NCBI GenBank assembly: GCA_046290225.1 | Contig: JBKAGE010000045.1 | Coordinates: 1-64,000, forward strand | DNA: 64,000 bases | Source: Bradymonadia bacterium | Lineage (GTDB): Bacteria > Myxococcota_A > Bradymonadia > UBA7976 > UBA1532 | Direction of reading: 5' to 3' | Shown: piece by piece, positions 1,912-59,907 of the stretch | Numbering within the stretch: the stretch's first letter is position 1 | Layout of the letters: the number at the start of each line of letters is the position of its first letter | Position numbers and translations under genes: made by a program | The notes under the pieces: model-generated | What the model was told of the DNA's origin: nothing | Databases searched by the model: none | Seen by the model: only the letters and a program-made list of their open reading frames with translations

Positions 1912-1943
1912 TTTCGCCGAGGGCCTCAGCGCCGACCCATGCT
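1912..1943 (+). promoter_or_regulatory. shared late-promoter-like motif, copy 1
   Basis: TTTCGCC-N19-CATGCT, then AGGAG RBS and TTG start at 1975. Confidence 0.6.
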
Positions 1944-1974
1944 GCTCCTACCGGCCCACCCAGGAGCAGCAGCC

Positions 1975-2241
1975 TTGATCGACGCCCTACCCCACCCCGC
2001 ACCAGCGCTCGTGCGCACCGTCCGTACGGATCTACAAGATGCACATCTGATGAACGCCCTCATCGAAGCTCTCTATGATCTCGAAGAGGGTGTGTCCCAG
2101 AGCCAGGTGCTGCGACAGATCAACAGGGCCTTCCTGCAGTTGGGTGTCGTTGACTACCAGTTCGGCTCAGAGCGTTGGCGCGTCTTCCAAAGGCAGAACG
2201 GCAAGACCGTACAGATCATCGAGGGAGGGGGCGAGCCTTGA
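1975..2241 (+). CDS. hypothetical protein
   Basis: ORF 1939..2241; RBS favours TTG start at 1975. Confidence 0.55.
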   Translation: MIDALPHPAPALVRTVRTDLQDAHLMNALIEALYDLEEGVSQSQVLRQINRAFLQLGVVDYQFGSERWRVFQRQNGKTVQIIEGGGEP

Positions 2242-2858
2242 ATCCGCTGCTCCTCATCCTCTTCGCGCTCGCCTTCGTCCTCGTCGGGGCCCAGTTCGAG
2301 CGACGCATCTGGACATCGCACGGCCAGCAGCCAGGGCCGAAGGCACCCCTGCACCGCGGCAAGCGCCGGTGGGTGATCGTGCAGGACGAAGCTCAGCCGC
2401 CGCCTGCCCCTGGGCGCTGCTATGTGGCCCTGACCCTCTTCTCGGCCCTATGGCAATGGGGGCGCACCGATCTGATGGCATTGCTCTGGCGCAGGTTCAC
2501 CTTTGGGCTGGGCAAGTACGGCACTCTGGTGCAGACCCACAACGGCCGCGACGCCCTCGTCGACGCGCGGGATGAACTCGGGGATCTGCTCCAGTACGGT
2601 ACCCAGGCGATCCTCGAGGCCCACATCAACGGTGAGAGCGAGGGCAATGTGCCCCACGACGAGCAGTTCGACGACATCGACGTGCTTCTGGTGGAGGTCG
2701 AGGACGCCGTCAACGTGCTTCGTGCGATGCGCCGCACCCTCAGCGAAGAAGGCCTCAATGCTCTGCAGGTGCTGCCGCGCGACCTCACCGAACTGCTCGA
2801 TGTGCAGCAGGGCGCTCAGCCGTCGATGGAGGGGACCCCTGCGAACGGATCAGCGTGA
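2238..2858 (+). CDS. membrane-anchored phage protein with MazG-like NTP pyrophosphatase-type domain
   Basis: N-terminal hydrophobic helix; GLGKYGT..NGRDALVDARDELGDLLQY motif. Confidence 0.55.
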   Translation: MNPLLLILFALAFVLVGAQFERRIWTSHGQQPGPKAPLHRGKRRWVIVQDEAQPPPAPGRCYVALTLFSALWQWGRTDLMALLWRRFTFGLGKYGTLVQTHNGRDALVDARDELGDLLQYGTQAILEAHINGESEGNVPHDEQFDDIDVLLVEVEDAVNVLRAMRRTLSEEGLNALQVLPRDLTELLDVQQGAQPSMEGTPANGSA

Positions 2859-2905
2859 CGGCTCTGAACTAACGCCGTCGACGGGTTCTTATGTCGGCTC
2901 ATCTG
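2816..2905 (-). pseudogene. displaced 3' end of the tyrosine recombinase gene
   Basis: 2822-2905 matches 4056-4139 at 70/84 nt; translates QMSRHKNPSTALVQSRHADPFAGVPSIDG*. Confidence 0.85.
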
Positions 2906-3014
2906 ATTAACATTCTCTCGTCGTAGAAAACGGAGATTCCCCGAATTACCCCAGGGGTTTCCTGCTTCAACAAGCTGTACCTTGCTATGACGAAGCGTAG
3001 ATTGAGATTAGCAA

Positions 3015-4010
3015 CTAGACCTCTTCGATCCACTTCGGGTAATTGTGGAGCCATTCGTCTGCGAACTCAATTAGAGGTTCAACAGCGATAGTTAGATTCT
3101 TTAGATAAGACGCTGCCAAGCTCGGTGACTCCTTCGCATGCTCCACTGCTGAGTTGACTTCAAGCGAGACACCTGCCAGTTCATCAGGTACGCGGCCTGC
3201 CGCATAGCTAAGCTCATACATGTTATTGAAGTAAATGTTGAACTCATTGGTTTTTTCGGCAACTCCTGATTCACATGCTTTAATTTCTGAGCTGATTTCA
3301 TCCAGGGTTTTAATTGGATCACTCGTATTGGACCTTAGAAGGTCTTTTACGCGATCAAACCTCCTAATTTCTGAATGGAAGTCGAGTTTTCCGGCCAGTG
3401 CACTTCTTTTGGTGACAACTCTCTTCTTCACCGAAAGAAGCATCTTTCTCGTGAGATCTCTGACCAGCTCAGCGTAAGCAATTACATCTTCAAAGATGGA
3501 TATAGACTCTGATTCATAGCCACCTTCAGATTCACTATAGCATAGTCCGTCAAAGCTGAATTTTGATATCTTTACTCTTGAGACAAACCCCCACCTTTTG
3601 TTTCCTTTTCCTCCCTGCTTCACAGGATGGCCGAAATATCTGTTCCGGGCAATCCTAAGTCTTTTATAAGACTCATTGGATTCGAACTGCTTCATCTCTT
3701 CGTCACATAAAACAGACTTGCCCATGTAGGAAAAGGCATCCTGTTGGACAAAAATAACCTGCATTAGGCCATATATAGATAAATACGACTCACCGTTCCA
3801 ATTTGAGTTTGCATCAAACTCTACCTCGTTTACGTAGTAACCAATTGCTAGTGAGGTGTCTTCAACGACGTCTGCGGAGGCAATATAGTCAACCCATTGA
3901 TTTCTACTTGAGAAAGGTATTGGGTTGATTGAATTGTTATCAACAACAGCATCACGAAGTTCGGATAAGAGAGTTTCAATCTGTGAGAACAGTTCAGTAT
4001 ATTTCTTCAT
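3015..4010 (-). CDS. AT-rich cargo gene, putative HEPN-domain protein
   Basis: 331-aa ORF, visibly AT-richer than flanks; RNRYFGH (R-x5-H) motif. Confidence 0.55.
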   Translation of the reverse strand: MKKYTELFSQIETLLSELRDAVVDNNSINPIPFSSRNQWVDYIASADVVEDTSLAIGYYVNEVEFDANSNWNGESYLSIYGLMQVIFVQQDAFSYMGKSVLCDEEMKQFESNESYKRLRIARNRYFGHPVKQGGKGNKRWGFVSRVKISKFSFDGLCYSESEGGYESESISIFEDVIAYAELVRDLTRKMLLSVKKRVVTKRSALAGKLDFHSEIRRFDRVKDLLRSNTSDPIKTLDEISSEIKACESGVAEKTNEFNIYFNNMYELSYAAGRVPDELAGVSLEVNSAVEHAKESPSLAASYLKNLTIAVEPLIEFADEWLHNYPKWIEEV

Positions 4011-4052
4011 TAAAGCCCCGCGTGGATTTCATTCTTGATTGGCATTCAATTT

Positions 4053-5093: not shown

Positions 5094-5113
5094 GGCACAC
5101 GTCGGCTCTGGCT

Positions 5114-6535: not shown

Positions 6536-7133
6536 GTGGGTGAGCAGCTCCTGGTACTTCGCCTCTTCCCGCAGCTCGTCGCTAGGTAGTTTGGTGCACC
6601 GCATCCGCGAGAGCGACCGCCGCATCTCAGCGAAGAAGCCGCTAAAGCCGCGCCGACCAGTGCGAGCCGCTACCGCGCTCTGCAGCACGTACCCTGAGGG
6701 AGTGCATCGCGAATGGCATGGACTTGTTCCTACTGACGCTGGACATCCAGGAGCTCCCGCTGCAAATGGAGGTTGAGTCTGTCGCCGTGGCTCCTTCACG
6801 GAGCGGTACTTGCGGAGCAGCATTGTGTACGCTGGACTGGCGCGAGCAGCGGGCGTTGTGGGCAGAGCTGAGCGCTTGATACAACCCGAAACAGACATGA
6901 TCCGCGAACGCTGCTGTGGCATGATATTAAGCGCATTTCTGTTCCACCCGAGAACGAGATACGAGCGGGTGTTTCGCCCGAGCCGCGAGTACTGAGATGG
7001 CCAAGGCCGAACAAGCTAAAGCGTTGACTCGTTGCCACTCAGAAGGCGTCGAGATGCGCTTCTACGCGATGATCATGGAGTTCGGATCTAGACGTGTCCA
7101 CGCGTGGCGTGGGCTATCGCATCAGGAGGTCTG

Positions 7134-8030
7134 ATGGACCGAGTCGCCCGCGCATTCTACGAGCTGAAGTTCCGCGATGCGTTTCATCGAAAGACTGGCA
7201 ATGCGTTCCAGGACTTCTTCGCAGACGTCATGGAGAAGGCTCATCCTGGCGACTTCAGGCGGGTCCGTCCGTGGGGGAATGTCGGCGACAAGAAGAACGA
7301 CGGCTACCTCAAGTCGACACGAACGCTCTTTCAGGTGTACGCGCCTAACGAGATGAGTGCAGCGACCGCGATCGCTAAGATCGACGAAGACTTCAATGGC
7401 GCCATCCCCCATTGGAAGGAGCATTTCGACAGCTGGATCTTCGTCCACAACTCCGTGAACGGCCTTGGCCCAGATGTCACCAAGAAGCTTTTGGAGTTAG
7501 ACGCCGCCCACGAAGTTTCAGTCGGTCACTGGGGCGAAGAGGAACTCCGGCAGAAGGCATTCGAACTCAGCGATGCTAACTTGGCTTCCCTGTTGGGGCC
7601 GGCCCCAACAATCCGTGATATGCTTGACCTCGGGTTGGAGGCGCTTGCGCCAGTGCTCGACCAAGTCTCTGCGATGCCGGCTCCAGAGAACCCTGATCTG
7701 CGGCCGCCGCCAGCGGACAAGATCTCCAGGAACATGCTGTCACAGCACGTGGAAACTCTCTTGAAGGCGGGGATGACCCGTGCAGATTTGGTCTGTAAGT
7801 ACTTCAGCGTTCAGCCAGCGAGCCAAGACGACATCGCGCAAAGCTTCCGTCGCCACTACGAGGAGCTCCGCGACGGAGGCATGAGCCCCGATAATATTTT
7901 CAGCGAGCTTCAGCAGTACGCAGGTGGTGGGGCTGTTCCGAGTCCGGCAAGACAGAGCGCGGTACTGGCCGTGCTCGCCTTCTTTTTTGAGGAGTGCGAC
8001 ATCTACGAGCGAGATGGAGGCGCGTCATGA
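7134..8030 (+). CDS. lmuA: ABC-3C/Lamassu effector (LmuA-like; nuclease-like N-domain plus CTD)
   Basis: AGGAGG RBS; GNAFQDFF..GDKKNDG..FQVYAP; C-terminal FFFEECDIYE; operon context. Confidence 0.75.
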   Translation: MDRVARAFYELKFRDAFHRKTGNAFQDFFADVMEKAHPGDFRRVRPWGNVGDKKNDGYLKSTRTLFQVYAPNEMSAATAIAKIDEDFNGAIPHWKEHFDSWIFVHNSVNGLGPDVTKKLLELDAAHEVSVGHWGEEELRQKAFELSDANLASLLGPAPTIRDMLDLGLEALAPVLDQVSAMPAPENPDLRPPPADKISRNMLSQHVETLLKAGMTRADLVCKYFSVQPASQDDIAQSFRRHYEELRDGGMSPDNIFSELQQYAGGGAVPSPARQSAVLAVLAFFFEECDIYERDGGAS

Positions 8031-8281
8031 TACTGCCGACCAAGGGCGTGGAGCCGCGCAAAGCTATGTTGTCCGTCGGTGCCGTCGTGTTGCGCCACCT
8101 GGATGAGCCCAAGACTGTGTCGCGTCTATGGAACGATGTTCGCTCCGGCACGGAGAACCCGCCTGGATTCACGTTCGACTGGTTCGTCCTGGCCCTCGAC
8201 CTTCTCTTCACAATGGGGGCCATTGACCAGTCGGGCGGTCAGATCAGGCGACGGAACGCTGAAGCTGGGGATCGATCATGA
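8027..8281 (+). CDS. lmuC: ABC-3C middle component (LmuC-like)
   Basis: MILPTK..FDWFVLALDLLF motif; ATGA overlaps on both sides. Confidence 0.75.
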   Translation: MILPTKGVEPRKAMLSVGAVVLRHLDEPKTVSRLWNDVRSGTENPPGFTFDWFVLALDLLFTMGAIDQSGGQIRRRNAEAGDRS

Positions 8282-10029
8282 TTCGCCGTATCTACAGCAG
8301 CGATCTTGCGAGCTTCAAGGAGCTGGAGTTCGGAAGAGGTCTCAATATTCTACTTGCAGAGAAGAGCGACGGCGCCACTGACAAGCAGACCCGCAACCGG
8401 GCTGGAAAGTCGAGTATGGTGGAACTCGTCCACTTCTTACTTGGCTCAAACGCCGACAAGAAGTCGCTCTTCCGGAACGACGAGCTTGTCAACTTCACCT
8501 TCGGCATGGAGTTCGATCTCGACGGCAAGTCCACTCGGGTTGAGCGGACTGGAGCCAAGCCAAGTCCACTCGAAGTCGCAGCCTCATTCGAGGCATGGCC
8601 AAGTCAGCCCCGTGAGAAGGACGGCGCGCATTTGATCTCGAACACCAACTGGAAGTTGGTGCTCGGCGAGTTGATGTTTGGCATAGGCTCCAACAATGAG
8701 ACGTGGAGTCCTTCATTTAGGTCACTCCTCTCGTACTTTGTCAGGCGTGAGCGCTCGGGGGGCTTTCACCAGCCGATGCAGCATTTCCGACAGCAGATGC
8801 TGGCGGATCAACAAGTGAACATCTCCTACCTTCTGGGCCTTGATTGGACTGTGCCCCAGCAGTGGCAGCTTGTGAGAGAGCGTGAGAGCGCAGTGAAGAC
8901 CCTGAAGAAGGGGCTCAAGGACGGAGTCTTCGGTGACGTCATCGACAAGGCGTCTGTACTCAGGACAAAGCTTGTTGTTGCCCAGGACCGCGTCCGTCGC
9001 CTGAAAGACCAAGTCGCGTCCTTTAAAGTCGTTGCGGAGTATCATGAGCTTGAGCAGGAGGCCTCGGACCTGACGCGGAAACTCGGCGAGTTGTCCGATG
9101 ACAATACCCTCGACCGGCGCTACATCACGGAGCTTAAGCAGACAACTGTCGAAGAAGTGCCGCCACCACCAGCTGATCTCGAGAAGCTTTACCAGCAGGT
9201 AGGAATCGTACTTCCGGACTTGGTGCAACGACGGTTCGACGAAGTGAGGGCGTTCCACGAATCAGTAACAAGTAACCGGAAATCGTACCTCCGCAACGAG
9301 CTTGAAGAGGCACGGGCGCGTCTCGCCGACCGTGAACAGCAGATGGAGCGTCTCGATCGGCGTCGCGCCGAAGTGATGGGGATCCTCCAGTCGGCTGGCG
9401 CCCTTGAGCACTTTGCAGCCCTGCAAGGCGAAGTCGCTAGGGCAGAAGCCGAAGTCGAGGCCTTACGCCATCGGTACGAGACGGCCGAGGCGGCCGAGGC
9501 TGGCACGCTGAAGCTCCGTCTGGAGCGCGACCAGCTTCAAGAACGACTCCGGCAAGACTACAGCGAGCAAGAGGAACGAGTTGCAGAAGCCATTCTGACC
9601 TTCCAAACAATCTCGTCTGCTCTATACGAGGAGTCGCAGGCAGGCAGCTTCACGATCACGCCAACCGATAACGGTCCAGTGTTCGAGATCGAGATCCAAG
9701 GCTCAAAGAGCAGGGGCGTCTCGAACATGCAGATCTTCTGCTTTGACATGATGCTAACCCTGCTCAGTCTGAAGCGCGGACGGAGCCCTGGGTTTCTCGT
9801 ACACGACAGCCACCTGTTCGACGGAGTCGACGAGCGTCAGGTTGGGAAAGCTCTCGCGCTTGGCGCGGCCCTCGCTGAAAGGCACGGTTTCCAGTACATC
9901 GTGTCGCTCAACACCGACGACATCCCTCAAGAGGTGCCGCCAGGTTTCAGCGTCGAGGATTACGCGTTGGATATTCGGCTCCTGGACTCGACGGAAGAAG
10001 GTGGGCTCTTCGGGTTCCGGTTCGAGTAG
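8278..10029 (+). CDS. lmuB: ABC-3C/Lamassu SMC-like ATPase (DUF2326)
   Basis: Walker A NRAGKSS, long coiled coil, FLVHDSHLFDGVDERQ, ends GGLFGFRF. Confidence 0.85.
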   Translation: MIRRIYSSDLASFKELEFGRGLNILLAEKSDGATDKQTRNRAGKSSMVELVHFLLGSNADKKSLFRNDELVNFTFGMEFDLDGKSTRVERTGAKPSPLEVAASFEAWPSQPREKDGAHLISNTNWKLVLGELMFGIGSNNETWSPSFRSLLSYFVRRERSGGFHQPMQHFRQQMLADQQVNISYLLGLDWTVPQQWQLVRERESAVKTLKKGLKDGVFGDVIDKASVLRTKLVVAQDRVRRLKDQVASFKVVAEYHELEQEASDLTRKLGELSDDNTLDRRYITELKQTTVEEVPPPPADLEKLYQQVGIVLPDLVQRRFDEVRAFHESVTSNRKSYLRNELEEARARLADREQQMERLDRRRAEVMGILQSAGALEHFAALQGEVARAEAEVEALRHRYETAEAAEAGTLKLRLERDQLQERLRQDYSEQEERVAEAILTFQTISSALYEESQAGSFTITPTDNGPVFEIEIQGSKSRGVSNMQIFCFDMMLTLLSLKRGRSPGFLVHDSHLFDGVDERQVGKALALGAALAERHGFQYIVSLNTDDIPQEVPPGFSVEDYALDIRLLDSTEEGGLFGFRFE

Positions 10030-16673: not shown

Positions 16674-17879
16674 TTACGGGGTGTTGTTGGTGATGTTCAC
16701 CGTGGCGATGCGCCCGGGGCGGTAGGCCTTCAGGGCGTGGGCGGTGACGACACCGGCTTCGCGCAGGCCAGTGCGGGGGTTCGTGAAGTCGGGGCCCACA
16801 GACTGCACGGGGAGGAAGTTGCCGAAGACGAGCGTCGGCATGTTGTCGTGCTTGGCCTGCTGGATGAGCGTGAACTCAGGCAGCTCGGTGAACTCGAAGA
16901 TCTGAATGCCTCGGTTGCGAGCGGTGGCCCGCAGGTTCGAGAACTCGTTGATCGTCGCAGTACGCACGTCGCCCGCGTTGGCCTGGTCAGCGACCTCGAA
17001 CTGGTAGTGGTTCGAGAGCTCGAGCACCTCCATGGCCAGCGGATCACAAATGACCTGGTTGGTGGGTGCCTTGCCGTACCGGTGAGCCCGGATCTTGCGC
17101 GCGTTCATGGCGATTCGCTCGCCGAGGACACGACGCCACTCCACGATGTTGGCACCCTCGTAGTAGCTGCCGGATGCGGGGTAGACGTCATAGGCCGTCT
17201 GGTGCTGCGAGTTGGCCACCAGGGCAGCCAGGATGCGCGACTCGATGCCCTGCCGGATGGCTCGATCCATACCCGCGCTCAGGATTTCGTCGAGATTCCG
17301 CCCATAGCTGGACCGCATGCGGAACCGGCTCTGCAGCGTGGACTCCGCACTCAGGAAGTAGTAGGCGGCCGTCATGGTGTCTTCGGTGATGCCGAAGCCG
17401 ATACGGTTCGACTGACCGATGCCTTCAGGCGTGGGCGCTGCGGAGTAGTTGGGATCCCGCCCCACAGCCAGCGGGGAGTCGGCGCCGTAATCGTTGTTGT
17501 CCTCGCGGGTGTACTCCTCAGTGAAGATGTTGCCCTGCTCTTGCAGCATCTGCACACCGGTCACCAGATCGAAGGCGCCGAGGCCCTCGAAGATGTCCGA
17601 GATGAGACCAAGAACCTGAGGCCCGTGCAGGTGGATGTCCGTGGTGCCGACGGCCTCTTGGGCTGCCTGAGGCGTCGAGAGGTACGCGTGCTGGACCGCC
17701 ACGGCGGCGAGGAGCGCGCGCTTTCGAGCCAAGGGCAAATGGTCGAGGCTGCGCCCGAACGACTCCAGAGCGGCCTCGATCTGCTTCTCGTGGTCGCCAG
17801 GCAGTGCACGGTTGAGCCCGAGCACCCCCTTGGGCGCAGCTGCGGCGAGTTCTGCGGGGAGATTGAATTTGGGAAGCAT
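16674..17879 (-). CDS. major capsid protein, T4 gp23-like
   Basis: LGAFDLVTGVQML and LSAESTLQ..GRNLDEILSAGMDRAIRQGIESRIL resemble gp23 blocks; follows the prohead protease. Confidence 0.8.
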   Translation of the reverse strand: MLPKFNLPAELAAAAPKGVLGLNRALPGDHEKQIEAALESFGRSLDHLPLARKRALLAAVAVQHAYLSTPQAAQEAVGTTDIHLHGPQVLGLISDIFEGLGAFDLVTGVQMLQEQGNIFTEEYTREDNNDYGADSPLAVGRDPNYSAAPTPEGIGQSNRIGFGITEDTMTAAYYFLSAESTLQSRFRMRSSYGRNLDEILSAGMDRAIRQGIESRILAALVANSQHQTAYDVYPASGSYYEGANIVEWRRVLGERIAMNARKIRAHRYGKAPTNQVICDPLAMEVLELSNHYQFEVADQANAGDVRTATINEFSNLRATARNRGIQIFEFTELPEFTLIQQAKHDNMPTLVFGNFLPVQSVGPDFTNPRTGLREAGVVTAHALKAYRPGRIATVNITNNTP

Positions 17880-20416: not shown

Positions 20417-20448
20417 AGGTTGGGTGATGGTCGCCGGCGGTGGCGAAA
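20417..20448 (-). promoter_or_regulatory. shared late-promoter-like motif, copy 2
   Basis: TTTCGCC-N19-CAACCT. Confidence 0.6.
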
Positions 20449-24110: not shown

Positions 24111-24142
24111 ATGCTGAGGTGCATCGACCGCCGGCGGCGAAT
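24111..24142 (-). promoter_or_regulatory. shared late-promoter-like motif, copy 3 (leaderless start at 24103)
   Basis: ATTCGCC-N19-CAGCAT, 7 nt before ATG. Confidence 0.55.
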
Positions 24143-38411: not shown

Positions 38412-38417
38412 GCGTGG

Positions 38418-38451
38418 TAGGGAATCCTCGTTACGACGGGGAGGATATCAA
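38418..38451 (+). mobile_element. IS200/IS605-type right end (omegaRNA 3' scaffold); guide would start at 38452
   Basis: GGAATCCTC...GGGGAGGATATCAA hairpin ending in TCAA. Confidence 0.7.
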
Positions 38452-42238: not shown

Positions 42239-42247
42239 CTCGTATTC

Positions 42248-44877: not shown

Positions 44878-44889
44878 ACGAACCTCGAC

Positions 44890-45897
44890 TTAGAGCAGGG
44901 AGTGGAGCAGGCGCTCCACCTCAAAATGGAAATATTCGAGCAACCCCAGGTTGTCGATATGAGGCGTGGTGAGGGAGGCAAAAACGCCAACAGCCAGGAC
45001 TATGTGGCCAATGGTGCGTACAGGAGCTGGAGGCCCATTCATAAGCAGCTCGAGCCGTAGCTTGAGCGCAGCTCCATTGTGACCACAGAGCGCCACACCA
45101 TGCGATAGAAGGCCTTCACAGCGGAACTTGGCGGCTCGAACAATCCCCTCAGCCAAAGCGAGAGGCTCTCCGCCTCGGTGGACTGCTTCACTATCGCAGA
45201 CAGCTTCGCGCGCTGCACGCCATCGCTCGAAGTCAGGAGAGAGGAGAGCACTGGTAGGATTGACGGCAAGGCAGAGACGAGCGAGGAAGCCTCTGAGCGT
45301 ATCCAGTCCAGCAATATGAGCGTGCTCATGCAGGAGCACCGCGTGTAGGACTTCTGGGTCTGAGTCTCGAATGAAGCAAGCGTCGACCACCACAATGGGA
45401 CGCAACAAGCCCAACGTGTAGATCGGCTCAGTCGACTTGCGCACCACTACAATACGTAGAGAGTGGAGATGGGCATCTTGTTCAGCGGTGTCCATGATCC
45501 GTCTGACGAGGTCGTGTTCACACCCCAGCCGTTGGAGCTTAGCTCGGGGCCACTCCCGCCAGAGTCGAACAGCAATCATGCCTGTCATTCCAACCACCAG
45601 AAACCCAAGCAACAGCAGCGTGTCGACGCAGATCGTTGCTTCCATGTGATTGATGAAACAGGAGTCTGAGTTATGTGCTGGCTCGCTCTGATGGAGCACT
45701 GACGAAGTCAGCCACAGTACAGGAAACAAGGTTGGTGCAACGAGCCAGGCGAAGGTTGCTTCCGAACCAAAGCTTGCCCAGTTCGCAGCTCGCCGGCGGT
45801 TAAGTGAGAGCGCAACTCGGCTCCCCAACGTCAGCAGTGGGATCAAGACGAGGAATGTCGCAGCGACCGCAGTGAGCGGAAAAAAGAGATCATTCAT
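44890..45897 (-). CDS. M56 (BlaR1-like) membrane metallopeptidase
   Basis: [22 protein letters not shown]. Confidence 0.9.
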
Positions 45898-46334
45898 GAT
45901 CCCCCTCTTCTTCGCTTGCGAATCAGGACTTCCAGACGGTCCAATTCCGCATCATCAGCCTCCGCAACCCGTTCGACCAAGAATGCAACTGCAGCCTCCT
46001 GGCCCACAGGAGGAAGGCTCCCGAGCACCTCTCGGGTCATCGCCTGGATGAACTCGGACCGGCCCATTGTGGATTGATAGAGGTAACGCCGGCCTTCCTT
46101 GCGCCTGGTCAGAAGCTCCTTGTCATAGAGCCGGCTGACTGTGGTCATCACCGTCGTGTACGCAATCTCTCGTTGGCCCTCGAGTATTTCGTGGACATCG
46201 GTGACCGCGAACTCGTCCCACCCCTTCTCCCAGACAGCCTCCATAATCTCGGCTTCGAGATCATACAGCGATGTGCGCAGCCCATCCTGCTCAGGCCGAA
46301 TTCGAATGCCTTTCACAACTGCCTCCACGCACAA
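45894..46334 (-). CDS. BlaI/MecI/CopY repressor (start uncertain)
   Basis: [26 protein letters not shown]. Confidence 0.92.
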
Positions 46335-46623: not shown

Positions 46624-47073
46624 ATGCGCCAACTTCTTCTGCTCCTCTGTCTGCCCTCTGCAGCCCTGGCGTCCCCAGAGCCACCTGATGGCCATGCAAG
46701 CTGGGACGAGGGACATGAACGCAGAGGAGCAAGCAGCATGGACGCAGAAGCAGAGCAGCAGCCCTACGGCTGGGAGAAGAGTTGGGTCGACACGCAACAG
46801 GGCGACGGAGCGTGGACCCAAGGGGAGTGCTATCTCTACATGCGATGGGCAAGCAGCAATGCCTACTGGACAGCCAGGTGGTTTGGTGGTGAGAGCACCC
46901 GTCGCTTCAGAGGTGGGCGTTTCGAGGACGTTGCGCCAGCGGCGTTCAGAGCGGCCAGAGAGCTTCTGGTGGAGACAGGCCGGCTGCCTGAGATCTCCCC
47001 CGGGGAGGAGGCCTCCCACGGGCATGCAGGTACCCAAGGTGCGCGCAGCATCGACACCGGGGCCGTCGAGTGA
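46624..47073 (+). CDS. secreted hypothetical protein
   Basis: signal peptide; GTGA overlap with next gene. Confidence 0.55.
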   Translation: MRQLLLLLCLPSAALASPEPPDGHASWDEGHERRGASSMDAEAEQQPYGWEKSWVDTQQGDGAWTQGECYLYMRWASSNAYWTARWFGGESTRRFRGGRFEDVAPAAFRAARELLVETGRLPEISPGEEASHGHAGTQGARSIDTGAVE

Positions 47074-47594
47074 CGGACCAGAGCCCGAGGTGGCTCAACC
47101 TGAGGGGCCGCGACATCACCCCTCAGGATCTACTCACCGGGTGTGGTGTGATGCATCCGCCGGTGCCCATCTTCGAACTCGCCCGGTGGCTCGACGTGCG
47201 TGTCGACTTCAGCGCGAACCACGCGGATGGGCACATGGTGCTCTCCAGCTCAGCCCTCATCGTGCTCAATAGCCGCAAGCCCGCGGTGCGTCAGCGCTTC
47301 ACCCTTGCCCACCTCGTCGCGCACATGCTGCTGCACACCGACGTCGTGGAGCTCGTCGAGGACTTTAACACGCGAGACATGGGCCCTGTGGCCCAGCGCC
47401 GGCAACCGCATCTGTGGGAGAGGGAGCGCGAGGCCGATGACTTCGCCGCCGAGCTGCTCGTGCCCAGCAAGATGCTTGACCTGGACCTGCTCGAGGAGAA
47501 GTGGCGAGACCCCGACCTGCTGGCGCAGCGGTATCAGGTCTCGCCCACCACGATGCAGGTGCGGTTGAAGGAGTTGCTCAAGCCTGGGCCCTGA
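47070..47594 (+). CDS. ImmA/IrrE-family metallopeptidase-like protein lacking the catalytic Glu
   Basis: RQRFTLAHLVAH (HExxH to HLxxH), EREADDFAAELLVP. Confidence 0.8.
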   Translation: MTDQSPRWLNLRGRDITPQDLLTGCGVMHPPVPIFELARWLDVRVDFSANHADGHMVLSSSALIVLNSRKPAVRQRFTLAHLVAHMLLHTDVVELVEDFNTRDMGPVAQRRQPHLWEREREADDFAAELLVPSKMLDLDLLEEKWRDPDLLAQRYQVSPTTMQVRLKELLKPGP

Positions 47595-47603
47595 TCTGCC
47601 CCG

Positions 47604-47987
47604 TCAGGCGGCGTGGAACTCTTCGGCGATGCCCAGCAGGATTTCGGTGGGGATCCCAAGGCCCACGTGGAGCTTGCGGATCATGTCGAGCGAGAGGCTG
47701 CGCTTACCGGAGAGCACCTCCGACACACGGCCACTGTGCCCGATGTAGGGCTCCAGGTCCTTACGGCTGAGCCCCTGCTGCTCCATGCGAAACTTGATGG
47801 CCTCGATGGGCGAGGGCGGTGGCAGAGCATGGTGCCGGCGCTCGTATTCGTCGATGAGCACCGAGAGCACTTCCATGGCGTCGCGGGCGTCCTGGTCAGA
47901 CGCCAGCCGAGGCCACAGATCGTCGACGAGAGCCACAGCACGGGCGTGATCTGCATCATCACGGATGGGGCGGATTTCGATGCTCAT
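47604..47987 (-). CDS. higA: HigA-like antitoxin (no cognate toxin adjacent)
   Basis: IRPIR..LIDEYE..PIEAIKFRMEQQGL..KRSLSLDMIRKLH. Confidence 0.9.
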   Translation of the reverse strand: MSIEIRPIRDDADHARAVALVDDLWPRLASDQDARDAMEVLSVLIDEYERRHHALPPPSPIEAIKFRMEQQGLSRKDLEPYIGHSGRVSEVLSGKRSLSLDMIRKLHVGLGIPTEILLGIAEEFHAA

Positions 47988-48020: not shown

Positions 48021-50042
48021 TCATGTCTTGAGCCCCTTCAAGTACTCCGCCCACCTCGAGGCGATGACGCCCCAGTCCAACCCGCGGGCGCGCTCCACTG
48101 CCTCACCTGCCAGCCGGCGACGCATCGCAGCATCAGCGATGGCCTGAGCGACTGCCTCTTCGAGATCATCATGGGGCACGACAAGGGCATCTTGGTCGTG
48201 GGTGGCGTACTCGTCGACGCCGCGGCACTGAGTGCTCACGAGGGTGGCGCCAGAGGCCATCGCTTCGAGGCCAGTGAGCCCGAAACCCTGGTACTCGCTG
48301 GGCTCGACAACGATGTCCACCTGGGCCATCAGCTCGGCGAGGTCCCTTCGGCCCAGGCGACCGTGGCGACCGCAGGCGCCGACACAGCTGGGCACGTTCG
48401 CTTCGTGGCCCGTCCACCCGAACAGCTCGAGGGAGATGCGATCTCCAAAGCGGCGGTGCAGGCCTTCGTACACCTGGCGCAAGCGAGCCATGCCCCGACG
48501 CACCGCGGTCTTGGGCCGCCACATGGCGAGTACTCGCACTCGGCGGTTGTCGCGGGGCCCTCGGGGATGGAACAGGGCCGTGTCTACGCCGGCGGGAATG
48601 ACGGAGTACTTCTCCCGCTGCAGCCCGAGGTCCTCGGCGGCGGTGTCGAGGATCCAACGCGAGACGCCGATGCCGCGGCCGATGTCGATGAACCCGCGGA
48701 TCATCTCTTCGGTCATGCCCCGGCGACCGTTGCCCTCGAACCAGTCTTCTCGATCCTGGAGCACCGTGGTCAGCTGGAGGTCGGGGTTGCTGTCCACGAT
48801 CTCTCGGGCCACCTTCCCAGCACCCCAGTGGCTGGCCACGACGATGCCCTCGCTCCAGCCCAGGTGCCGGCGCCAGTCGGTCTTGAGCTGCGAGGGATGG
48901 CGCACCATGACCGGCGGCACCTGCGGGCGGAACTGGTGCGGTGTGAGGCTGTGCCCCACGACCTGAGCCCAGACGCCGTGCTTGTGGAGTCGATCTGCCA
49001 GCTCGAGCAAGAGAAGTACTCCACCCCAGGGGCCGACGTTGGAGGTGTAGAGTGCCACCGGCAGGCCTTGTGGCCGATGGTATGCCACTGCAGCACGGGC
49101 TGCGCTCGTCTCGATACCCCAACACGATGATGCGCCGCCGTCGGTGTCCACGAGCTCGCTGATGGGCCCAGGTCGATCATGGGCCCGCCACACGAAGGCG
49201 CTCTGACACACCACGGTGGTGCTTCGGATGCACGGGCGCTTGCCCTCGGCCATCTGTGCCACCAAGGGGCCGCACAGCAGCAGCACCCCGGGGTGTCTGG
49301 GGCAACCAGGGATCGGGGGCAGGGCAGATCCCCTGAGGGCAGCATCGATCTCCGCCGGCGGCAGGCCACCTCGGATCCGGGGATGAGGGCTTGTGGCATC
49401 GCCGGGGGCGGGCAGGTCCGTCGGGGCGCTCACGTTGCACAGAGGCACGACCGCGCCGGCGCCGTTGGCCTCCCGTGCTGCCAGAAGACGATCACCGAGG
49501 CCTTCGCCGACGACGACACCGTGCTCGATGATCAGTGCAGCCCCGACATTGCCCTCGTCGAGGATCGGACCGAGCAGGTGGTGAAGCCGACCGCCCTCGA
49601 GGAGATCAGCCGCGGTGTCATCGGGGCCCAACTGGATCTCAACGAGGGGCCCATCGGTGTATGCCGAGATCTCCAGCTGCTGCTGCGGCGCATCCATGGG
49701 ACCCCCACCAAAGGGGCTGTCGATGGCCCGACCTGGCCAGGGCTCAGCGCCGTTGTGTCGGTTGCTCATGACGGCCTTTCGTTTCTTGGGCGGCTCGGGG
49801 CGTAGAGGGCGTGCCAGGGCCTGTCGTGGCTCTGGGGCATACCCGAGGCGGGCCGAGACCTCCTTGGGCTCCAGAGCGGCGCCCAGGTGGCTCACGGCGT
49901 CGTTCGGAAGGTGCCTGTAGTGCCAGGCCAGGATGTAGTCACCCGGACGCACCTCGATGGGTGCCTGCCCAGGCAAAGACAGCGTCGTCGGCGCCGGGCC
50001 CCCATACCTGCGCCACAGCTCGAGGTCGAGGATGCTCCTCAT
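48021..50042 (-). CDS. glycosyltransferase with C-terminal GT-B/GT4 domain
   Basis: GVDTALFHP, PSEYQGFGLTGLEAMASG. Confidence 0.85.
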   Translation of the reverse strand: MRSILDLELWRRYGGPAPTTLSLPGQAPIEVRPGDYILAWHYRHLPNDAVSHLGAALEPKEVSARLGYAPEPRQALARPLRPEPPKKRKAVMSNRHNGAEPWPGRAIDSPFGGGPMDAPQQQLEISAYTDGPLVEIQLGPDDTAADLLEGGRLHHLLGPILDEGNVGAALIIEHGVVVGEGLGDRLLAAREANGAGAVVPLCNVSAPTDLPAPGDATSPHPRIRGGLPPAEIDAALRGSALPPIPGCPRHPGVLLLCGPLVAQMAEGKRPCIRSTTVVCQSAFVWRAHDRPGPISELVDTDGGASSCWGIETSAARAAVAYHRPQGLPVALYTSNVGPWGGVLLLLELADRLHKHGVWAQVVGHSLTPHQFRPQVPPVMVRHPSQLKTDWRRHLGWSEGIVVASHWGAGKVAREIVDSNPDLQLTTVLQDREDWFEGNGRRGMTEEMIRGFIDIGRGIGVSRWILDTAAEDLGLQREKYSVIPAGVDTALFHPRGPRDNRRVRVLAMWRPKTAVRRGMARLRQVYEGLHRRFGDRISLELFGWTGHEANVPSCVGACGRHGRLGRRDLAELMAQVDIVVEPSEYQGFGLTGLEAMASGATLVSTQCRGVDEYATHDQDALVVPHDDLEEAVAQAIADAAMRRRLAGEAVERARGLDWGVIASRWAEYLKGLKT

Positions 50043-52379: not shown

Positions 52380-52411
52380 ACAGTGCAATCAGCGCAGCAA
52401 AGATGGCGAAA
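52380..52411 (-). promoter_or_regulatory. shared late-promoter-like motif, copy 7
   Basis: TTTCGCC-N19-CACTGT. Confidence 0.6.
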
Positions 52412-52630: not shown

Positions 52631-55552
52631 TCAGCCCACCTTTCCCCCAAGCACAGTCCATCCCTTGAACCGTCCCAGGAGACCAAGCCCGGGCACATTC
52701 GCTTGGTAGGTGCCGGTGTTGCGCAGATGGCAGCGACGTTGGCCCGGGATCTGGGTTTGGGCCACGATGGCCACATACCCGCGGGGTCGGAGCACCCTGC
52801 GCACCTCTTGGAGCAGGGGAGCGAGCTCGGCGTCGGTCATCTCTTCGACGCCGCCGGCGAGCAGCAGATCACTGGCATCGTCCGCGGGGAGATTTGCGAT
52901 CGTCGACGAATCGACGATGCGCGCCTCGATGTCCTTGCTGCCCAGCATCTCTACAGCAACCTGAGCCCACGCCCCGAGAGCCAACACCGGGCCGTGTCGA
53001 CGGCGCAGGCGTACGAACTCGATGCTCTCGATGCACTTGGCCAGGGCCTGCGCTTGAGCATCCTCGAGAGCGCCCACCTGGGGCATCGCGCCGACTACAG
53101 CTGAGCACTTTGGCAGCGGTAGAGGATCACCCCAGGGCCCGGCGGACATGATGACTGCCGTCTGTGCCTCGTCGCCGGCTTGCACGGCTTGGTCGTAGAT
53201 GCTCCCGGCTGGATCTTTGATGATCTGGAACTCACCTTCCTCCCGGGCCAGAGCCACCATGGGCACACCCTGATCCCGCGCGGCCAGCGCAACGAAGAGA
53301 TCTGCCATGTTGGGTTGGGTAAACATCTCCAGTCTCAGGGCCAGCGTCGAGGTGTGGTAGGCCATCACACCAGTCCCGAGCACATGGACCGGCGTATCGG
53401 CATCAGACGCTTCGGTCATGTGGCGGACCGTTCGATCCTGATAGTACGAGCCCACGTCCCCATGCAGAACGGCCCCGTGAAACCCAAGCACGGCCTGGCG
53501 CTGGTAGTTCTCGATGCGCGCCGCGAGCACTGAGGCGTACAGCTGCGGATACTCGATGTCGTCGTCGACAAGCAGGTGGTATGCCCCCTGGCCCTGCCGG
53601 AACTTCCACAGCAGGCGCTCGCTGCGATCGGCGTAGTAGGCCTCGGAGAGGAGATCCTCGACCCAGAGCATCTTGCCGGCGTCGCCGAGGGTGTTGTCCT
53701 CGAGGCGCACCGTGATCCAGGGCCTGTCGAGCCACTCAGGTGCTTCGTCCCAGCCGTTGAGGCAGATGTTCAAATGGTCGACTTGACCCTCGAGCCGGCG
53801 GACCACCTCTCGCAATGACTCTGCCCGCCGTGGGATCGCAGCCATCGACGCGATGACGGGGCAGGCAAGGTGGTGGGCCAACTGCCAGCAGCGGTCATCG
53901 CCGTCGACGTGGTTGATGGTGATCAGATCAACCTTGGCCCGAGCCTCAGGGTTCATCATGGATTCACCATACAGGTGCACCACCAGGCTGCCCTTCACCC
54001 GATACTGATGCAGGCCTGCGCCATCGAGGGCCCGAGAGAGCATCATGCCCACCCCACACGAGAGTGATGGGTCTTGGTCCCATCGATCCGCCGGCGGCTC
54101 GGGGCATGTCCACTCCATGGCCTCATGAAAGACTCGATCCGCGGCGAAGGCGCCATCGACCCAACTGATCTCATCAACCGGACCTCGACCCACAGGCGTG
54201 TGCCCCGTCCAGCAGGTGGTGTCAGGGCTATTGCGTGCCGAGTCGATGTGGAGCACCAGCGTGGCTCGATCTTCCTCGGGCGCAGATGCCCAGGCCTCGT
54301 CGAGGCGCTCGAAGAACCTGTCACACAGGCGCATATCGTCATCGAAGTACACCCACAGGCGCGGTGACTCGAGGCGCTGAGCGGCCATCTGCAGGCCACG
54401 CCATCGGCAGTACCCTCGCTTGCCATGGTTCGTGTCGGCCCTGACGTAGAGCCACCCCTTCTCGGCAAGGAAGCGCCGCACCACCAGCATGTCAGCGGTG
54501 CTGGCATCGTCGTATACCTGCACCCCGATCTGGGTCGAGGTCGCCTCGCTCTCCCGGGCCAGGTCGAGCAGTAGATCGAGCAGCTGCCCAGGGCGGTTGA
54601 AGGTCGAGATCACCACCTGCACGCCCCCGGTGGGGCACTGGGGCACTGCCAGAGCCGGCAGGTCAACCCCTGAGACGATGCCGAGCTGCTCGAGCCACCA
54701 GTCCGCCTCGGCTTTGATCTCGGCGGCCTTCTGCTCCCTGCGGGCCTGCTTCTCGTTCTGGCCCTTTGTGCGCCCCTTGTCCTTGCGGTGGGGCTGGTGG
54801 AGGATCCGAACACTCGCCAGCAGCCGGATGTCGAGGACACCCTCTCGCTGCAGCCCCTTGAGGCGGTCGATGATCTCCTCTTTGTTGCCACCCCAGCCGG
54901 TGAAGTACTCGTCGAAGCCCCCGAGAGCCTTGAGGATGGCCCGGGGGATGATGGGCATGCCCTCGGGCAGGTCCGACACCCTCACGCTCGCCGGCGGCCC
55001 AGGCTGGTATCGATCCAGGAACCCAGAGTGCACGGGCTCGAACTCATCGAACTTGCCCACGAGATCGGCCCAGGTCTGCTTCCCCTTGACCCATGAGCTC
55101 GACGCGCGGATCCACTTCGAGGGTGTGCCGGTGATGCCACCCATGCACGGCGTCAATACCGCGGGCAGGCCCCGATGCGTCGCCGCGGTCAACTCGGCCA
55201 GGGCGTGAGTGATCGCGTGGGGCGGGAGGATGAAATCGCCATCCATGATCCAGCACCACAGCGCCGTCGACGCTCGCCACGCTGCGTTGCGCGCGTGGTT
55301 GCGGTGGGGCAGCTTGGCCCCCTCGGGCCGGGGGCTGTCCACCACCATGACGTCATGACGGCACGTGGGGGCCAGCTCGGCCACCAGCGCCTGCACAACA
55401 CCATCGGGATCTGGTCCATCGACGGCGACGATGACGTCGAAGAGATCTGGTGCGCAGTCTTGGGCGCTCAGAGACAGCAACTGGCGCCGAAGCAGCTCGA
55501 CTCGATCAGACGCCGAAGACGTTGGGATACAGACGGACAGATAGGCAGACAT
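52631..55552 (-). CDS. multi-domain glycosyltransferase (three GT-A modules plus C-terminal methyltransferase-like domain)
   Basis: LSVCIPT..DGDF..GGFDEYFTGWGG; VVISTFNR..DDAS..FDDD; IPRR..DAGK..VDDDIEYP..GTG; EVRRVLRPRG. Confidence 0.85.
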   Translation of the reverse strand: MSAYLSVCIPTSSASDRVELLRRQLLSLSAQDCAPDLFDVIVAVDGPDPDGVVQALVAELAPTCRHDVMVVDSPRPEGAKLPHRNHARNAAWRASTALWCWIMDGDFILPPHAITHALAELTAATHRGLPAVLTPCMGGITGTPSKWIRASSSWVKGKQTWADLVGKFDEFEPVHSGFLDRYQPGPPASVRVSDLPEGMPIIPRAILKALGGFDEYFTGWGGNKEEIIDRLKGLQREGVLDIRLLASVRILHQPHRKDKGRTKGQNEKQARREQKAAEIKAEADWWLEQLGIVSGVDLPALAVPQCPTGGVQVVISTFNRPGQLLDLLLDLARESEATSTQIGVQVYDDASTADMLVVRRFLAEKGWLYVRADTNHGKRGYCRWRGLQMAAQRLESPRLWVYFDDDMRLCDRFFERLDEAWASAPEEDRATLVLHIDSARNSPDTTCWTGHTPVGRGPVDEISWVDGAFAADRVFHEAMEWTCPEPPADRWDQDPSLSCGVGMMLSRALDGAGLHQYRVKGSLVVHLYGESMMNPEARAKVDLITINHVDGDDRCWQLAHHLACPVIASMAAIPRRAESLREVVRRLEGQVDHLNICLNGWDEAPEWLDRPWITVRLEDNTLGDAGKMLWVEDLLSEAYYADRSERLLWKFRQGQGAYHLLVDDDIEYPQLYASVLAARIENYQRQAVLGFHGAVLHGDVGSYYQDRTVRHMTEASDADTPVHVLGTGVMAYHTSTLALRLEMFTQPNMADLFVALAARDQGVPMVALAREEGEFQIIKDPAGSIYDQAVQAGDEAQTAVIMSAGPWGDPLPLPKCSAVVGAMPQVGALEDAQAQALAKCIESIEFVRLRRRHGPVLALGAWAQVAVEMLGSKDIEARIVDSSTIANLPADDASDLLLAGGVEEMTDAELAPLLQEVRRVLRPRGYVAIVAQTQIPGQRRCHLRNTGTYQANVPGLGLLGRFKGWTVLGGKVG

Positions 55553-55579: not shown

Positions 55580-55611
55580 AGCCTCTCAGCGCCTCCCGAG
55601 ATGCGACGAAA
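55580..55611 (-). promoter_or_regulatory. shared late-promoter-like motif, copy 8
   Basis: TTTCGTC-N19-GAGGCT. Confidence 0.6.
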
Positions 55612-55751: not shown

Positions 55752-56189
55752 TCAGCCTGCCTTCTGGGCCGGGGCGGCGCCTACCAGATCCAAGGCCTCG
55801 GGGTGGGCGTCGAGTACTCGGAGCAGGTTCGACAGTGCCTGACTCGGCACGATGGAACCCGACTCATACTTATTGAAGGCTTTGACCCCGCCGCCGAGAC
55901 GGATCCCAGCCTGTCGCTGGCTCAACCCGAGGCGCTCACGGATCGTCCGAACCTGGGCCGGCGAGAGCACCCCCTTGGCCTCGGCGCGCAGTTCCTGGTG
56001 TGCCTCGAAGCTCATGCGCGCCTCTGCACCAGTGAACAGGGCCTCGCCACATGCATTGCACCACCAGCCGGGCTGCATGATCTCACGAGAGAGGGTCACA
56101 CCCCCATCGGTGTACTCAACGACGTCGGGGCGCGTCTCATGGACCATGCCAGGGGCGCCACAGGACGGACACGTGGGTTGCTTGCTCAT
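55752..56189 (-). CDS. mqsA: MqsA antitoxin
   Basis: CPSC..CNACGE Zn finger; LGGGVKAFNKYESG HTH. Confidence 0.92.
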   Translation of the reverse strand: MSKQPTCPSCGAPGMVHETRPDVVEYTDGGVTLSREIMQPGWWCNACGEALFTGAEARMSFEAHQELRAEAKGVLSPAQVRTIRERLGLSQRQAGIRLGGGVKAFNKYESGSIVPSQALSNLLRVLDAHPEALDLVGAAPAQKAG

Positions 56190-56212
56190 GTCGATTCTCC
56201 TGGCCTGCGGCC

Positions 56213-56530
56213 TTACTTCTCTTTGAACGAGATCAGCCGGTAGCTGAACTCGATGATCTGATCCTCGCCGAACTTCACATACAGCATGCGACCCTCAACC
56301 CTGATGCAGGGCACATGGTAGACGTCCTGCCACTTCCTGTGATCGCCGTGGACCGTCATGCTCTTGTAGCAATGGCGAGGCTTGATGGTCTCGATCAGGG
56401 TCAAGATCTCGGCTTCATAGTACCCGAGATCCCTGGCGGTCTTCGTGGCCGTTCGGGTGATGCTCAACCCACCCTCGCTCATCTGCTTCTTGATGGCGTC
56501 GAGAGAGTAGTGTGCGCTTCGCTTTTCCAT
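56213..56530 (-). CDS. mqsR: MqsR mRNA interferase toxin
   Basis: MEKRSAHYSL, YKSMT..DHRKWQDVY, ISFKEK. Confidence 0.93.
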   Translation of the reverse strand: MEKRSAHYSLDAIKKQMSEGGLSITRTATKTARDLGYYEAEILTLIETIKPRHCYKSMTVHGDHRKWQDVYHVPCIRVEGRMLYVKFGEDQIIEFSYRLISFKEK

Positions 56531-56548
56531 AATCCCTCGCCCAAACCG

Positions 56549-58075: not shown

Positions 58076-58290
58076 GCCACGTGTGTCAGCCCTGGAATGT
58101 GGCCTGGTTGACCTACGGTGGACCGGTCTTCGCCGTGTTGAGCGGTGGGGAAATTATCAGCGGAGAGGCGACGGACCGCCGTCTGGGACCAGGTGTTCCG
58201 CTGATCCGGGTAAGCCAGCCGGAGTCAGGTCGTGAGGTGTGGCTGCACCCTCGATATGTCTGGCCACGCTGGAAGCCGCCAGAGTCCTGA
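58072..58290 (+). CDS. small hypothetical protein
   Basis: ATGA overlap with upstream gene. Confidence 0.5.
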   Translation: MSHVCQPWNVAWLTYGGPVFAVLSGGEIISGEATDRRLGPGVPLIRVSQPESGREVWLHPRYVWPRWKPPES

Positions 58291-58396
58291 TGAATGCCCG
58301 AGGGGCACCAAAGGCCATACCCCGGGGCGGATGCCCCCTTTCCTTGAGCTGGGCGATATGATGTTTGACCCTCATGGGCCACGAGATGGAGATCTG

Positions 58397-59224
58397 ATGA
58401 GCGAAACTTACACCACCGTTGCCGGCGAGAAGATCACCTACGACGCTCCGGAAGCTCCGATCATGAGCTTCCTGCTTGAGGTCATGCACACGGCTGCAGA
58501 TCCGAAGGTAAGCACCATGGCCCTGTACGATCTCGTGCACGGGGTACGTAACCCGATCCTCCGCCAGGGGGTCGTGCCTGGGCGAGGCATCGTGACTGAT
58601 GAGGCCTACGACGATCCCGTCTACCGCATCATGCTCGATCAGATCGCCCTCAAGCGCATCGCACGGGGCGACGCCGACACCTCCACCGAGGGCGCCAAGA
58701 TCTTCAACCTCTCCGTCTCTGAGGCGGCCGAGATCATCGGCATCTCGCCGCAGGGCGTGCGCAACTCGCTGAGCCGTGGATCTTGGCCGTACGTCCGCAA
58801 GGACGGCCGCATGATGATGGCCATCGAAGATGCCGAGCGGTGGCGCGACAAGCATCAGAACCGAGGCGCCGGGGGCAGCAAGACCCCAGGCCAGGCCGAG
58901 GCGGCGCCGTCGGGGGCTCTTCAAGTCCGCCTCGGCAACGTCAAGGGGCTGTCGTTCTTCGTGAAGAATGCGGCACCAGACCTGGCGAACAAGCGAGCCG
59001 ATGGACGCCACGTGCATTGCGGCGAGATCCCCGAAGGCTGGCAGCGGATCGCAGTCAAGAGAGCTGAGGGCAAGAAGAGCACCATGTTCGTGCTCGAGCC
59101 CGGGCCGGAAGAGGCAGAGATCGAGTGGAAGGGGTTCTATGTCCGCGGGCGGTTCACCATCACACAGAAGATCAACAACGCCCGCGAGATCAGCGCGGCA
59201 TGGAAGGCGTTCGAGCCTGCTTGA
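58397..59224 (+). CDS. excisionase/MerR-type HTH DNA-binding protein
   Basis: LSVSEAAEIIGISPQGVRN..G..P..KDGR. Confidence 0.75.
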   Translation: MSETYTTVAGEKITYDAPEAPIMSFLLEVMHTAADPKVSTMALYDLVHGVRNPILRQGVVPGRGIVTDEAYDDPVYRIMLDQIALKRIARGDADTSTEGAKIFNLSVSEAAEIIGISPQGVRNSLSRGSWPYVRKDGRMMMAIEDAERWRDKHQNRGAGGSKTPGQAEAAPSGALQVRLGNVKGLSFFVKNAAPDLANKRADGRHVHCGEIPEGWQRIAVKRAEGKKSTMFVLEPGPEEAEIEWKGFYVRGRFTITQKINNAREISAAWKAFEPA

Positions 59225-59268
59225 GGGGGCCGATTTTCTAATTTTCGCAAACCGGCCTCGCCCTTACC

Positions 59269-59721
59269 TCAGGCCCCTTCCAGAGCCTCCCGCACCGCTT
59301 CTCGGATGGCCTCAACCCCACCTTGTTGCTCACGGATGTTCGCCATCCACATCTTGGTGAAGTCGCACTGCTCTTCCACCGCTATAGGGCGGAAGCGCAC
59401 AGGCCGATCGGCGCCATCGAGCTCAAGGGCCTCCTGGAAGTATGGGGGGATGGACCTCGAGAAGCTCACCGGCAGCCATGCATCAGTGGCTTCGATGTAG
59501 ATGAACTCCATGTCAGGATCTGAGCACATGTCGCCGTTTTGCAGGAAGTAGTGAGCCACCGAGAACCGGTGCTCAGTCAGGCGGTTCACATAAACCGCCA
59601 TGTATACGCCGTCACTGTTATCGAATTTGATGCCCTGGCCTTCTTTCAGCCCATCAGTAAGCGCCTTGAGGACGTCCGAGACCTGAGTGATGCCTTCGTC
59701 GCCAAAGAGGAAATTTGTCAT
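59269..59721 (-). CDS. DUF6908-like protein (leader cassette C)
   Basis: SVAHYFLQNGDMCSDPDMEF..WMANIREQ. Confidence 0.7.
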   Translation of the reverse strand: MTNFLFGDEGITQVSDVLKALTDGLKEGQGIKFDNSDGVYMAVYVNRLTEHRFSVAHYFLQNGDMCSDPDMEFIYIEATDAWLPVSFSRSIPPYFQEALELDGADRPVRFRPIAVEEQCDFTKMWMANIREQQGGVEAIREAVREALEGA

Positions 59722-59763
59722 GGTGTGTCTCCAAAGGGAGTGTCCGAGGTCCGCTCGGTCGGG
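59718..59763 (-). repeat. 46-nt structured leader, copy C
   Basis: 1 mismatch to copy A, in the hairpin loop. Confidence 0.9.
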
Positions 59764-59875
59764 TGAGAGGCTCAACGCCCATCAGTGAGTACATTTATAC
59801 TCGCTCTGTCTTGCCTTGTCAACACGGATTCAGCACAACGGTGTGTTGTTTTTGTTGTCTGGTGAGGTGGATCTG

Positions 59876-59907
59876 TTTCGTCAAAGATGTCTGAAGGGTG
59901 TGAGGCT
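59876..59907 (+). promoter_or_regulatory. shared late-promoter-like motif, copy 9
   Basis: TTTCGTC-N19-GAGGCT. Confidence 0.6.

Follow-up and report, generated by a model that had tools for sequence, protein, structure and literature searches.

How could late genes that lie scattered over a phage genome be switched on together? The question is raised by a 64,000-nucleotide (nt) stretch of DNA, here called the window, which makes up bases 1–64000 of contig JBKAGE010000045.1 in a Bradymonadia bacterium assembly (GCA_046290225.1). The contig (98,278 bp; C45, with numbering continued past the window) looks like a phage-plasmid, because genes for ParA, a ribbon-helix-helix partner, RepA_C, and a tyrosine recombinase sit beside those for capsid, terminase, tape measure, and DnaB. 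Judged by named homologs of its proteins, the host belongs to Myxococcota; the assembly gave no 16S match. A preliminary description of the window pointed to one motif, TTTCGYC-N19-nAnnnT, ahead of nine scattered transcription units, and proposed a late regulon with its own upstream box, read by an activator or sigma factor.

Sites in other phages support that regulon as the best reading. The two-part signal, a heptamer box and a downstream hexamer, precedes virion, packaging, and lysis genes, and very probably represents a late-promoter class, here predicted from sequence. Shared across Myxococcota phages, it would define activator-dependent late promoters of a new variety. The chances appear evenly balanced that the box is read by a protein of the AsgB family, whose C45 member resembles region 4 of a sigma factor.

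A two-part signal on one contig

Rechecking the window sequence reproduced the boxes, hexamers, and coordinates of all nine sites, each of which lies 7–39 nt upstream of a start codon. The full pattern occurs seven times in the window, against 0.39 ± 0.62 expected from 100 shuffles (largest count, 3), and seven of the 12 TTTCGYC words there have the hexamer at 19 nt. Over the whole of C45, eight matches fall at spacer 19 and 0–2 at each other spacer (10–29 tested); the remaining genome has no such peak, with 45 matches at spacer 19 and 27–59 at other spacers. If ATTCGYC is also allowed, the hexamer stands at 19 nt in 10 of 30 C45 boxes (P = 1.8e-7, corrected for six spacers). These C45 P values are overstated, because the pattern was derived from these very sites; the independent test of the motif comes from other phages.

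A weight-matrix scan added two sites past the window, at C45 72019–72050(−) and 78483–78514(−), for a total of 11. Their targets are virion, packaging, and lysis units, with one exception on C45, a methyltransferase. The rightward, early-type block at 85–98 kb contains none of the 11.

The hexamer and the box

Derived de novo from 3968 host upstream regions, the host housekeeping promoter reads TTGnCn-N17-(T/C)AnnnT, with TTG 20 nt before the −10 element. Because host promoters read this way, the motif's hexamer is of the host −10 type, and its box is not the host −35. At the 24111 and 78483 sites, an ATG comes 7 and 6 nt after the hexamer, respectively. This leaderless layout would place the start site where the −10 predicts. 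An ATG 5–8 nt past the hexamer recurs at many sites across phages, from which we infer that the sites mark transcription starts. Read in the register TCGYCN, the C45 box lies 18 bp from the hexamer and retains the G and C of TTGACA, the positions contacted by sigma70 residues R584 and E585. The T-C-G-H-C core would then occupy the −35 position, with a spacer of 17–19 bp in that register.

The preliminary description allowed that the motif might instead be a common host promoter class. About 4000 host upstream regions contain 11 promoter-positioned sites at spacer 19; the other spacers average 3.7 (P = 0.0016). The excess is absent with one-mismatch boxes, and it is gone when a ribosome-binding site is required (two sites in 8.5 Mb, versus seven on C45); no leaderless signal appears among 2209 host boxes. 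By these counts the motif is at most a rare class in the host, and is phage-specific in this genome.

A host site upstream of hisS (L217) was considered as a conserved copy of the motif and rejected: it belongs to a short repeat, and is not conserved across 16 relatives. This REP-like repeat, CCGTCCGCTACAGGC, has several copies in the host (L217, upstream of hisS; contig C37 at about 182760).

The same signal in other phages

AsgB homologs were confirmed in 130 viral stretches, of which 79 loci were retrieved; no cultured phage record holds a full-length homolog. The sample for motif counts was 29 of the 79 AsgB-carrying contigs, with most of the sequence: 28 rated at least 90% complete, and G070 in part. 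Across these 29 phages, WTTCGYC stands 29–36 nt before start codons 17 times versus 3.4 expected, in a distance window picked after the signal was first seen. At the same distance, the reverse complement counts 3 versus 7.5 expected, and S-TTCGYC is flat.

The enrichment stems from a small number of genomes. Of the 22 boxes in G090, eight are at spacer 18 (P = 6e-7), upstream of tail, head, chaperone, and assembly genes. In G063 there are five sites at spacer 20–21, among them those of terminase and capsid (an integrase and a ParB-like gene are exceptions), and G092 has sites at spacer 18. Relatives found through virion proteins (L330, L331/G112, and L339) keep the box, the hexamer, and the spacer length, with changed spacer letters; in G112, 7 of 12 boxes are at spacer 18. 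The variants TTTCGAC and ATTCGAC appear in relatives of G090. Pooling 34 pattern-selected sites gives the non-palindromic box G-W-W-T-C-G-H-C. The spacer is fixed in a genome-specific manner, at 18, 19, or 20 nt (20–21 in G063). This conservation of box, hexamer, and spacer in other phages provides independent support for a functional promoter class, rather than a local repeat.

In the other 45 AsgB loci, covered as flanks of up to 20 kb, no one spacer was favoured, and the exact C45 pattern, at spacer 19, came near its reversed control in 50 AsgB phages. Mx8 and Mx9 (50 of 53.5 kb scanned), which have no AsgB match in that collection, show no regulon.

A candidate reader

Two kinds of reader had been proposed: a sigma factor outside the window, and the helix-turn-helix gene at 58397–59224(+). 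The latter is disfavoured as an activator, because its helix-turn-helix matches fall below cut-off, it is excisionase-like, and it has no homolog in other motif-bearing phages. As to the former, no full sigma factor was found on C45: the genome's 38 Sigma70_r2 matches are all on other contigs, though C45 may be incomplete because a terminal repeat was not found. C45 has a single Sigma70_r4 match, in an AsgB homolog of 236 amino acids (aa) with region 4 only, encoded 8 kb beyond the window at 72111–72821(+).

This protein matches PF04545 above cut-off through a C-terminal helix-turn-helix, and lacks region 2. Its family profile matches region 4.2 of primary sigma factors (RpoD), and the AsgB-type family is marked by four invariant cysteines together with the helix-turn-helix. 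The C45 homolog has a chromosomal paralog, and the family was found in 53 of 60 related genomes. Phage and host copies have the four cysteines and an RPCP motif in common; identity between the C45 and host copies is 28%, and the C45 copy has an insertion of about 20 aa and the recognition helix TREMVRQ. No donor is claimed for it, because its branch is long and the AsgB tree mostly lacks resolution.

The family assignment runs through a primer. The reverse primer for MXAN_2913, the asgB gene of Myxococcus xanthus (primer 1018; PMC3986340, supplement 2), gives ETGSIKL on translation, and its match to the host paralog is in frame. The match is 19 of 23 nt in the host paralog and 22 of 23 in an Anaeromyxobacter gene. 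By this match, and by the features common to the phage and host copies, C45 72111–72821 is placed in the AsgB family, an indirect line of homology to MXAN_2913. M. xanthus AsgB has 163 aa and a C-terminal region-4 domain, according to PMC3986340; it is still characterised only as "likely a transcription factor". Neither an AsgB binding site nor a phage AsgB copy is described in the accessible parts of PMC3986340, bioRxiv 2026.08.28.747804, and PMC4320627. Literature searches on phage asgB, an AsgB site, such a promoter, and late control in myxobacterial phages turned up none (subscription papers and bioRxiv supplements lay outside their scope). A 1994 study by Plamann reportedly proposed that AsgB binds −35-like DNA.

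The surroundings of the C45 gene may bear on its control. A consensus promoter, TTGAAC-18-TATATT at C45 72038–72067(+), precedes it, the only consensus match in a 300-bp scan. The box of the divergent 72019 site sits in the spacer of this promoter; as read from the sequence, the overlap has the arrangement of an activator that holds its own expression in check as well. AsgB, moreover, is the sole protein common to C45, G063, G090, and G092 (BLAST, E 1e-3), a result that is partly built in, because three of the four phages were found through AsgB.

These elements can be assembled into a proposed mechanism. After induction, the phage AsgB homolog would be made from its sigmaA-type promoter, and early expression of this copy would time the switch. 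The protein would bind the box, at about −38 to −32, in place of the normal −35; sigmaA polymerase could then open the adjacent −10 hexamer, and the 11 scattered late units would be switched on. AsgB bound at 72044–72050 would also damp its own gene. Phages without their own AsgB copy would rely on the host's. That the phage copy is the reader on C45 seems a real possibility, if short of an even prospect; that the host copy fills this role is distinctly unlikely.

Structure prediction gave a pLDDT (predicted local distance difference test) value of 50 for full-length phage AsgB and 85 for the host AsgB core, whose only structural match, a weak one, was to sigma region 4. When the phage AsgB core was modelled in complex with the host beta-flap, the score was 0.00, with an uncertain fold for the partner.

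A broader proposal is tentative. AsgB proteins may be detachable −35 readers, that is, stand-alone versions of region 4.2 that leave melting of the −10 to sigmaA, which unrelated Myxococcota phages use for their late genes, through their own or the host's copy; WWTCGHC-N18-20-nAnnnT would then be the family's first binding site. A defined promoter that recurs in phages with little else in common, the motif is a direct substrate for testing AsgB binding. It also allows a test of whether the housekeeping polymerase can be redirected by a protein that has only region 4. With a reader other than AsgB, the signal would still be a promoter class new for phages, and might serve to assign hosts to uncultured Myxococcota phages.

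Other possible readers

Several observations weigh against an AsgB reader. Among the 29 AsgB phages, significance is clear in G090 alone; it is marginal in G063, G103, and G092 (P = 0.025–0.045) and missing in 25, in a count that excludes the AATCGCC and TTTCGAC variants and in which phages with a single long late operon would show no regulon. G111 (76 kb, 97% complete, with both ends inside the tape measure gene and virion genes colinear with those of G090) has five AATCGCC-N19-nAnnnT sites at virion-module promoters, several of them orthologous to those of G090 (5 of 19 boxes, P = 1e-3), and no AsgB was found in it by a profile that scores the other four phages at 119–190 bits. (A 425-aa multi-helix-turn-helix protein of G111 contains a weak region-4-like element.) A phmmer comparison (E 0.05) detected no regulator that all five phages share. 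G064, the sole contig with the C45 virion module, has AsgB yet carries a different repeated motif. Helices of phage AsgB copies vary (TREMVRQ, TRARVKQ, TRERIRM), whereas the box is constant. Finally, host asgB upstream regions show no box footprint: TTTCGYC occurs in 11 of 106 loci, and the full motif in one. The AsgB-less G111, the lack of a common regulator, the many AsgB phages with no significant regulon, the different motif of G064, the constant box, and the varied helices fit a host-encoded reader (host AsgB being the obvious one) or an undetected phage activator.

It is rather unlikely that a host factor other than AsgB, either an alternative group 2 sigma factor or sigmaA with its region 4 altered by a small phage protein, reads the box at these same promoters while phage AsgB does something else, such as blocking host −35 promoters. 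Such a factor would explain why the box is near-identical across phages with no detectable shared regulator, and three RpoD-like sigma factors of the host carry the helix TRERIRQ. The slight host excess at spacer 19 points the same way, but it does not survive the mismatch and ribosome-binding-site filters, comes without a leaderless signal, and includes the hisS repeat among its 11 sites. Genome-specific spacers suit a phage-encoded reader, though hosts differ as well. Moreover, a lysogenic phage-plasmid must keep its lysis genes off, so a phage-made switch would presumably still be needed.

Another phage activator, too diverged to detect, might read the box in the manner of Lpa, Mu C, or MotA, with AsgB as a passenger; this, too, is doubtful. 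G111 has its regulon without AsgB, many C45 genes belong to no family, and, as C45 has no terminal repeat, the gene in question may be missing from it. A specific candidate is the cysteine-rich 200-aa gene upstream of terminase that is common to G090 and G111 (L096:17094–17696; L347 from 14667; no Pfam match). However, neither this gene nor 58397 yielded homologs in other motif-bearing phages, and convergence of unrelated activators on one 7-bp box would be unlikely.

It is highly improbable that host sigmaA alone reads the sites as weak promoters with a degenerate −35 (TCGCCN), timed by DNA replication or a repressor: the TCGHCN register does give spacers of 17–19 bp, near the sigma70 optimum, before a host-type −10, but the host favours TTG at that position and has no TCGYC peak, selection should drift the box to TTGAC, as in these phages' other promoters, and a strictly fixed spacer of 19 or 20 nt is not expected.

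Three further observations concern these phages and their AsgB copies. The G064 motif, GGAAACAACCCGCA..CGCGGTA, has three copies (L121 7394, L122 7333, and L123 5480) before portal, head, and neck genes, and would be a second, undescribed late motif; a region-2 sigma factor was not found in G064. Phage AsgB copies at L087, L103, L106, L108, L109, L110, and L111 have strongly altered recognition helices, for example SRQLVDL and TPQRVLQ, and are candidates for other boxes. Cysteine-rich N-terminal stretches precede AsgB in G092 and G073.

Relation to known systems

The C45 sites show features of activator-dependent sigma70 late promoters: a host-type −10; a conserved non-consensus box at a fixed distance; and virion, packaging, and lysis targets. 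The preliminary description likened them to, and distinguished them from, the Lpa promoters of P1. The P1 phage-plasmid has 11 scattered late promoters with one common upstream site that need positive control (PMC10695390); C45 likewise has 11 scattered sites with one upstream box. The P1 Lpa site is a 9-bp inverted repeat (same source), whereas the C45 box is seven letters long, non-palindromic, and placed at about −38 to −32. PHROG/Pfam scans of 85 and 105 C45 open reading frames gave no match to the Lpa family, with no search aimed at Lpa.

At T4 middle promoters, a MotA box replaces the −35 while host sigma70 retains the −10 (PMC7403470). The C45 motif similarly has a phage box in the −35 place and a host-type −10. 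In contrast, no match to AsiA or MotA was found, the C45 candidate itself copies sigma70 region 4.2, and the C45 targets are late genes. Phage sigma factors such as T4 gp55 and that of phiEco32 resemble the proposed system in that a single factor turns on many late promoters; they differ in that no region 2 was found on C45 and the −10 is of host type. With M. xanthus AsgB, the C45 protein shares its short length and C-terminal PF04545 helix-turn-helix, and the host paralog has ETGSIKL.

The individual sites

The leftmost site, TTTCGCC-N19-CATGCT at 1912–1943(+), lies 31 nt before genes of 88 and 206 aa with unassigned function. TTTCGCC-N19-CAACCT at 20417–20448(−) heads genes for proteins of 191 and 499 aa and for the major capsid protein (16674–17879); the 499-aa protein, earlier called a protease, has no family match. 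The leaderless site ATTCGCC-N19-CAGCAT at 24111–24142(−) precedes a 1213-aa gene ending at 20462. Its weak divergent partner before 24217, ATTCGCC-N19-TAGGTC at 24157–24188(+), lacks the final T, and the two boxes together make a 9-bp inverted repeat. Two other weaker copies had been suggested: that before the tail tube gene, TTTTGCC-N19-CACATC, has two mismatches, and no credible copy was found before the protease.

TTTCGCC-N19-CATGCT recurs at 25486–25517(+), 22 nt before a 158-aa gene that is followed by a tail-completion gene (26020–26607). TTTCGCC-N19-TACGCT at 28385–28416(−) precedes a 199-aa gene with no family match, and TTTAGCC-N19-CATCCT at 35223–35254(−) precedes the tape measure gene (30212–35197). 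Behind TTTCGCC-N19-CACTGT at 52380–52411(−) are genes for 219 aa, a weakly SU10-adaptor-like 253 aa, an exonuclease, and a glycosyltransferase. TTTCGTC-N19-GAGGCT occurs twice: at 55580–55611(−), before a 973-aa family-2 glycosyltransferase, and at 59876–59907(+), before the gene of a likely lysin, 273 aa long, in which a CHAP domain is weakly matched. The target labels fared unevenly: tape measure stands; CHAP (lysin) falls below the Pfam cut-off; the SU10 adaptor is weak; and "chaperone" and "Asp-box protein" have no family match.

Past the window, ATTCGCC-N19-CACGCT at 72019–72050(−) heads a mostly minus-strand run that ends inside the window at the terminase large subunit gene (60823–62481(−)). 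This packaging run includes a GroES-like gene at 70053–70604 (L001:8053–8604). The 78483–78514(−) site is the further leaderless one.

Other genes of the contig

Close relatives of C45 were limited to one homolog per protein, 81–87% identical and without context; no metagenome contig was found, and among viral contigs only G064. Large glycosyltransferases are encoded at 48021–50042, downstream in a motif-headed run, and at 52631–55552, directly behind a motif site; a G064 homolog lies among head genes. This placement in both phages suggests virion glycosylation.

Between the tape measure and neck genes (37185–46334) is a cargo block that contains an IS605 TnpB, a methyltransferase, an RND efflux trio (AcrB family, HlyD, and an outer-membrane protein), and a BlaR/BlaI-type pair. 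Elsewhere in the window are ABC-three-component defence-like genes (CTD10 and DUF2326; 7104–10029), an HTH_3 gene convergent with an IrrE/ImmA-like metallopeptidase (47070–47987), and an MqsR/MqsA pair (55752–56530). Beside a replication gene, at C45 about 83240–83330 (L002:3240–3330), are short tandem repeats of gagcccccc(c)tt, a possible origin.

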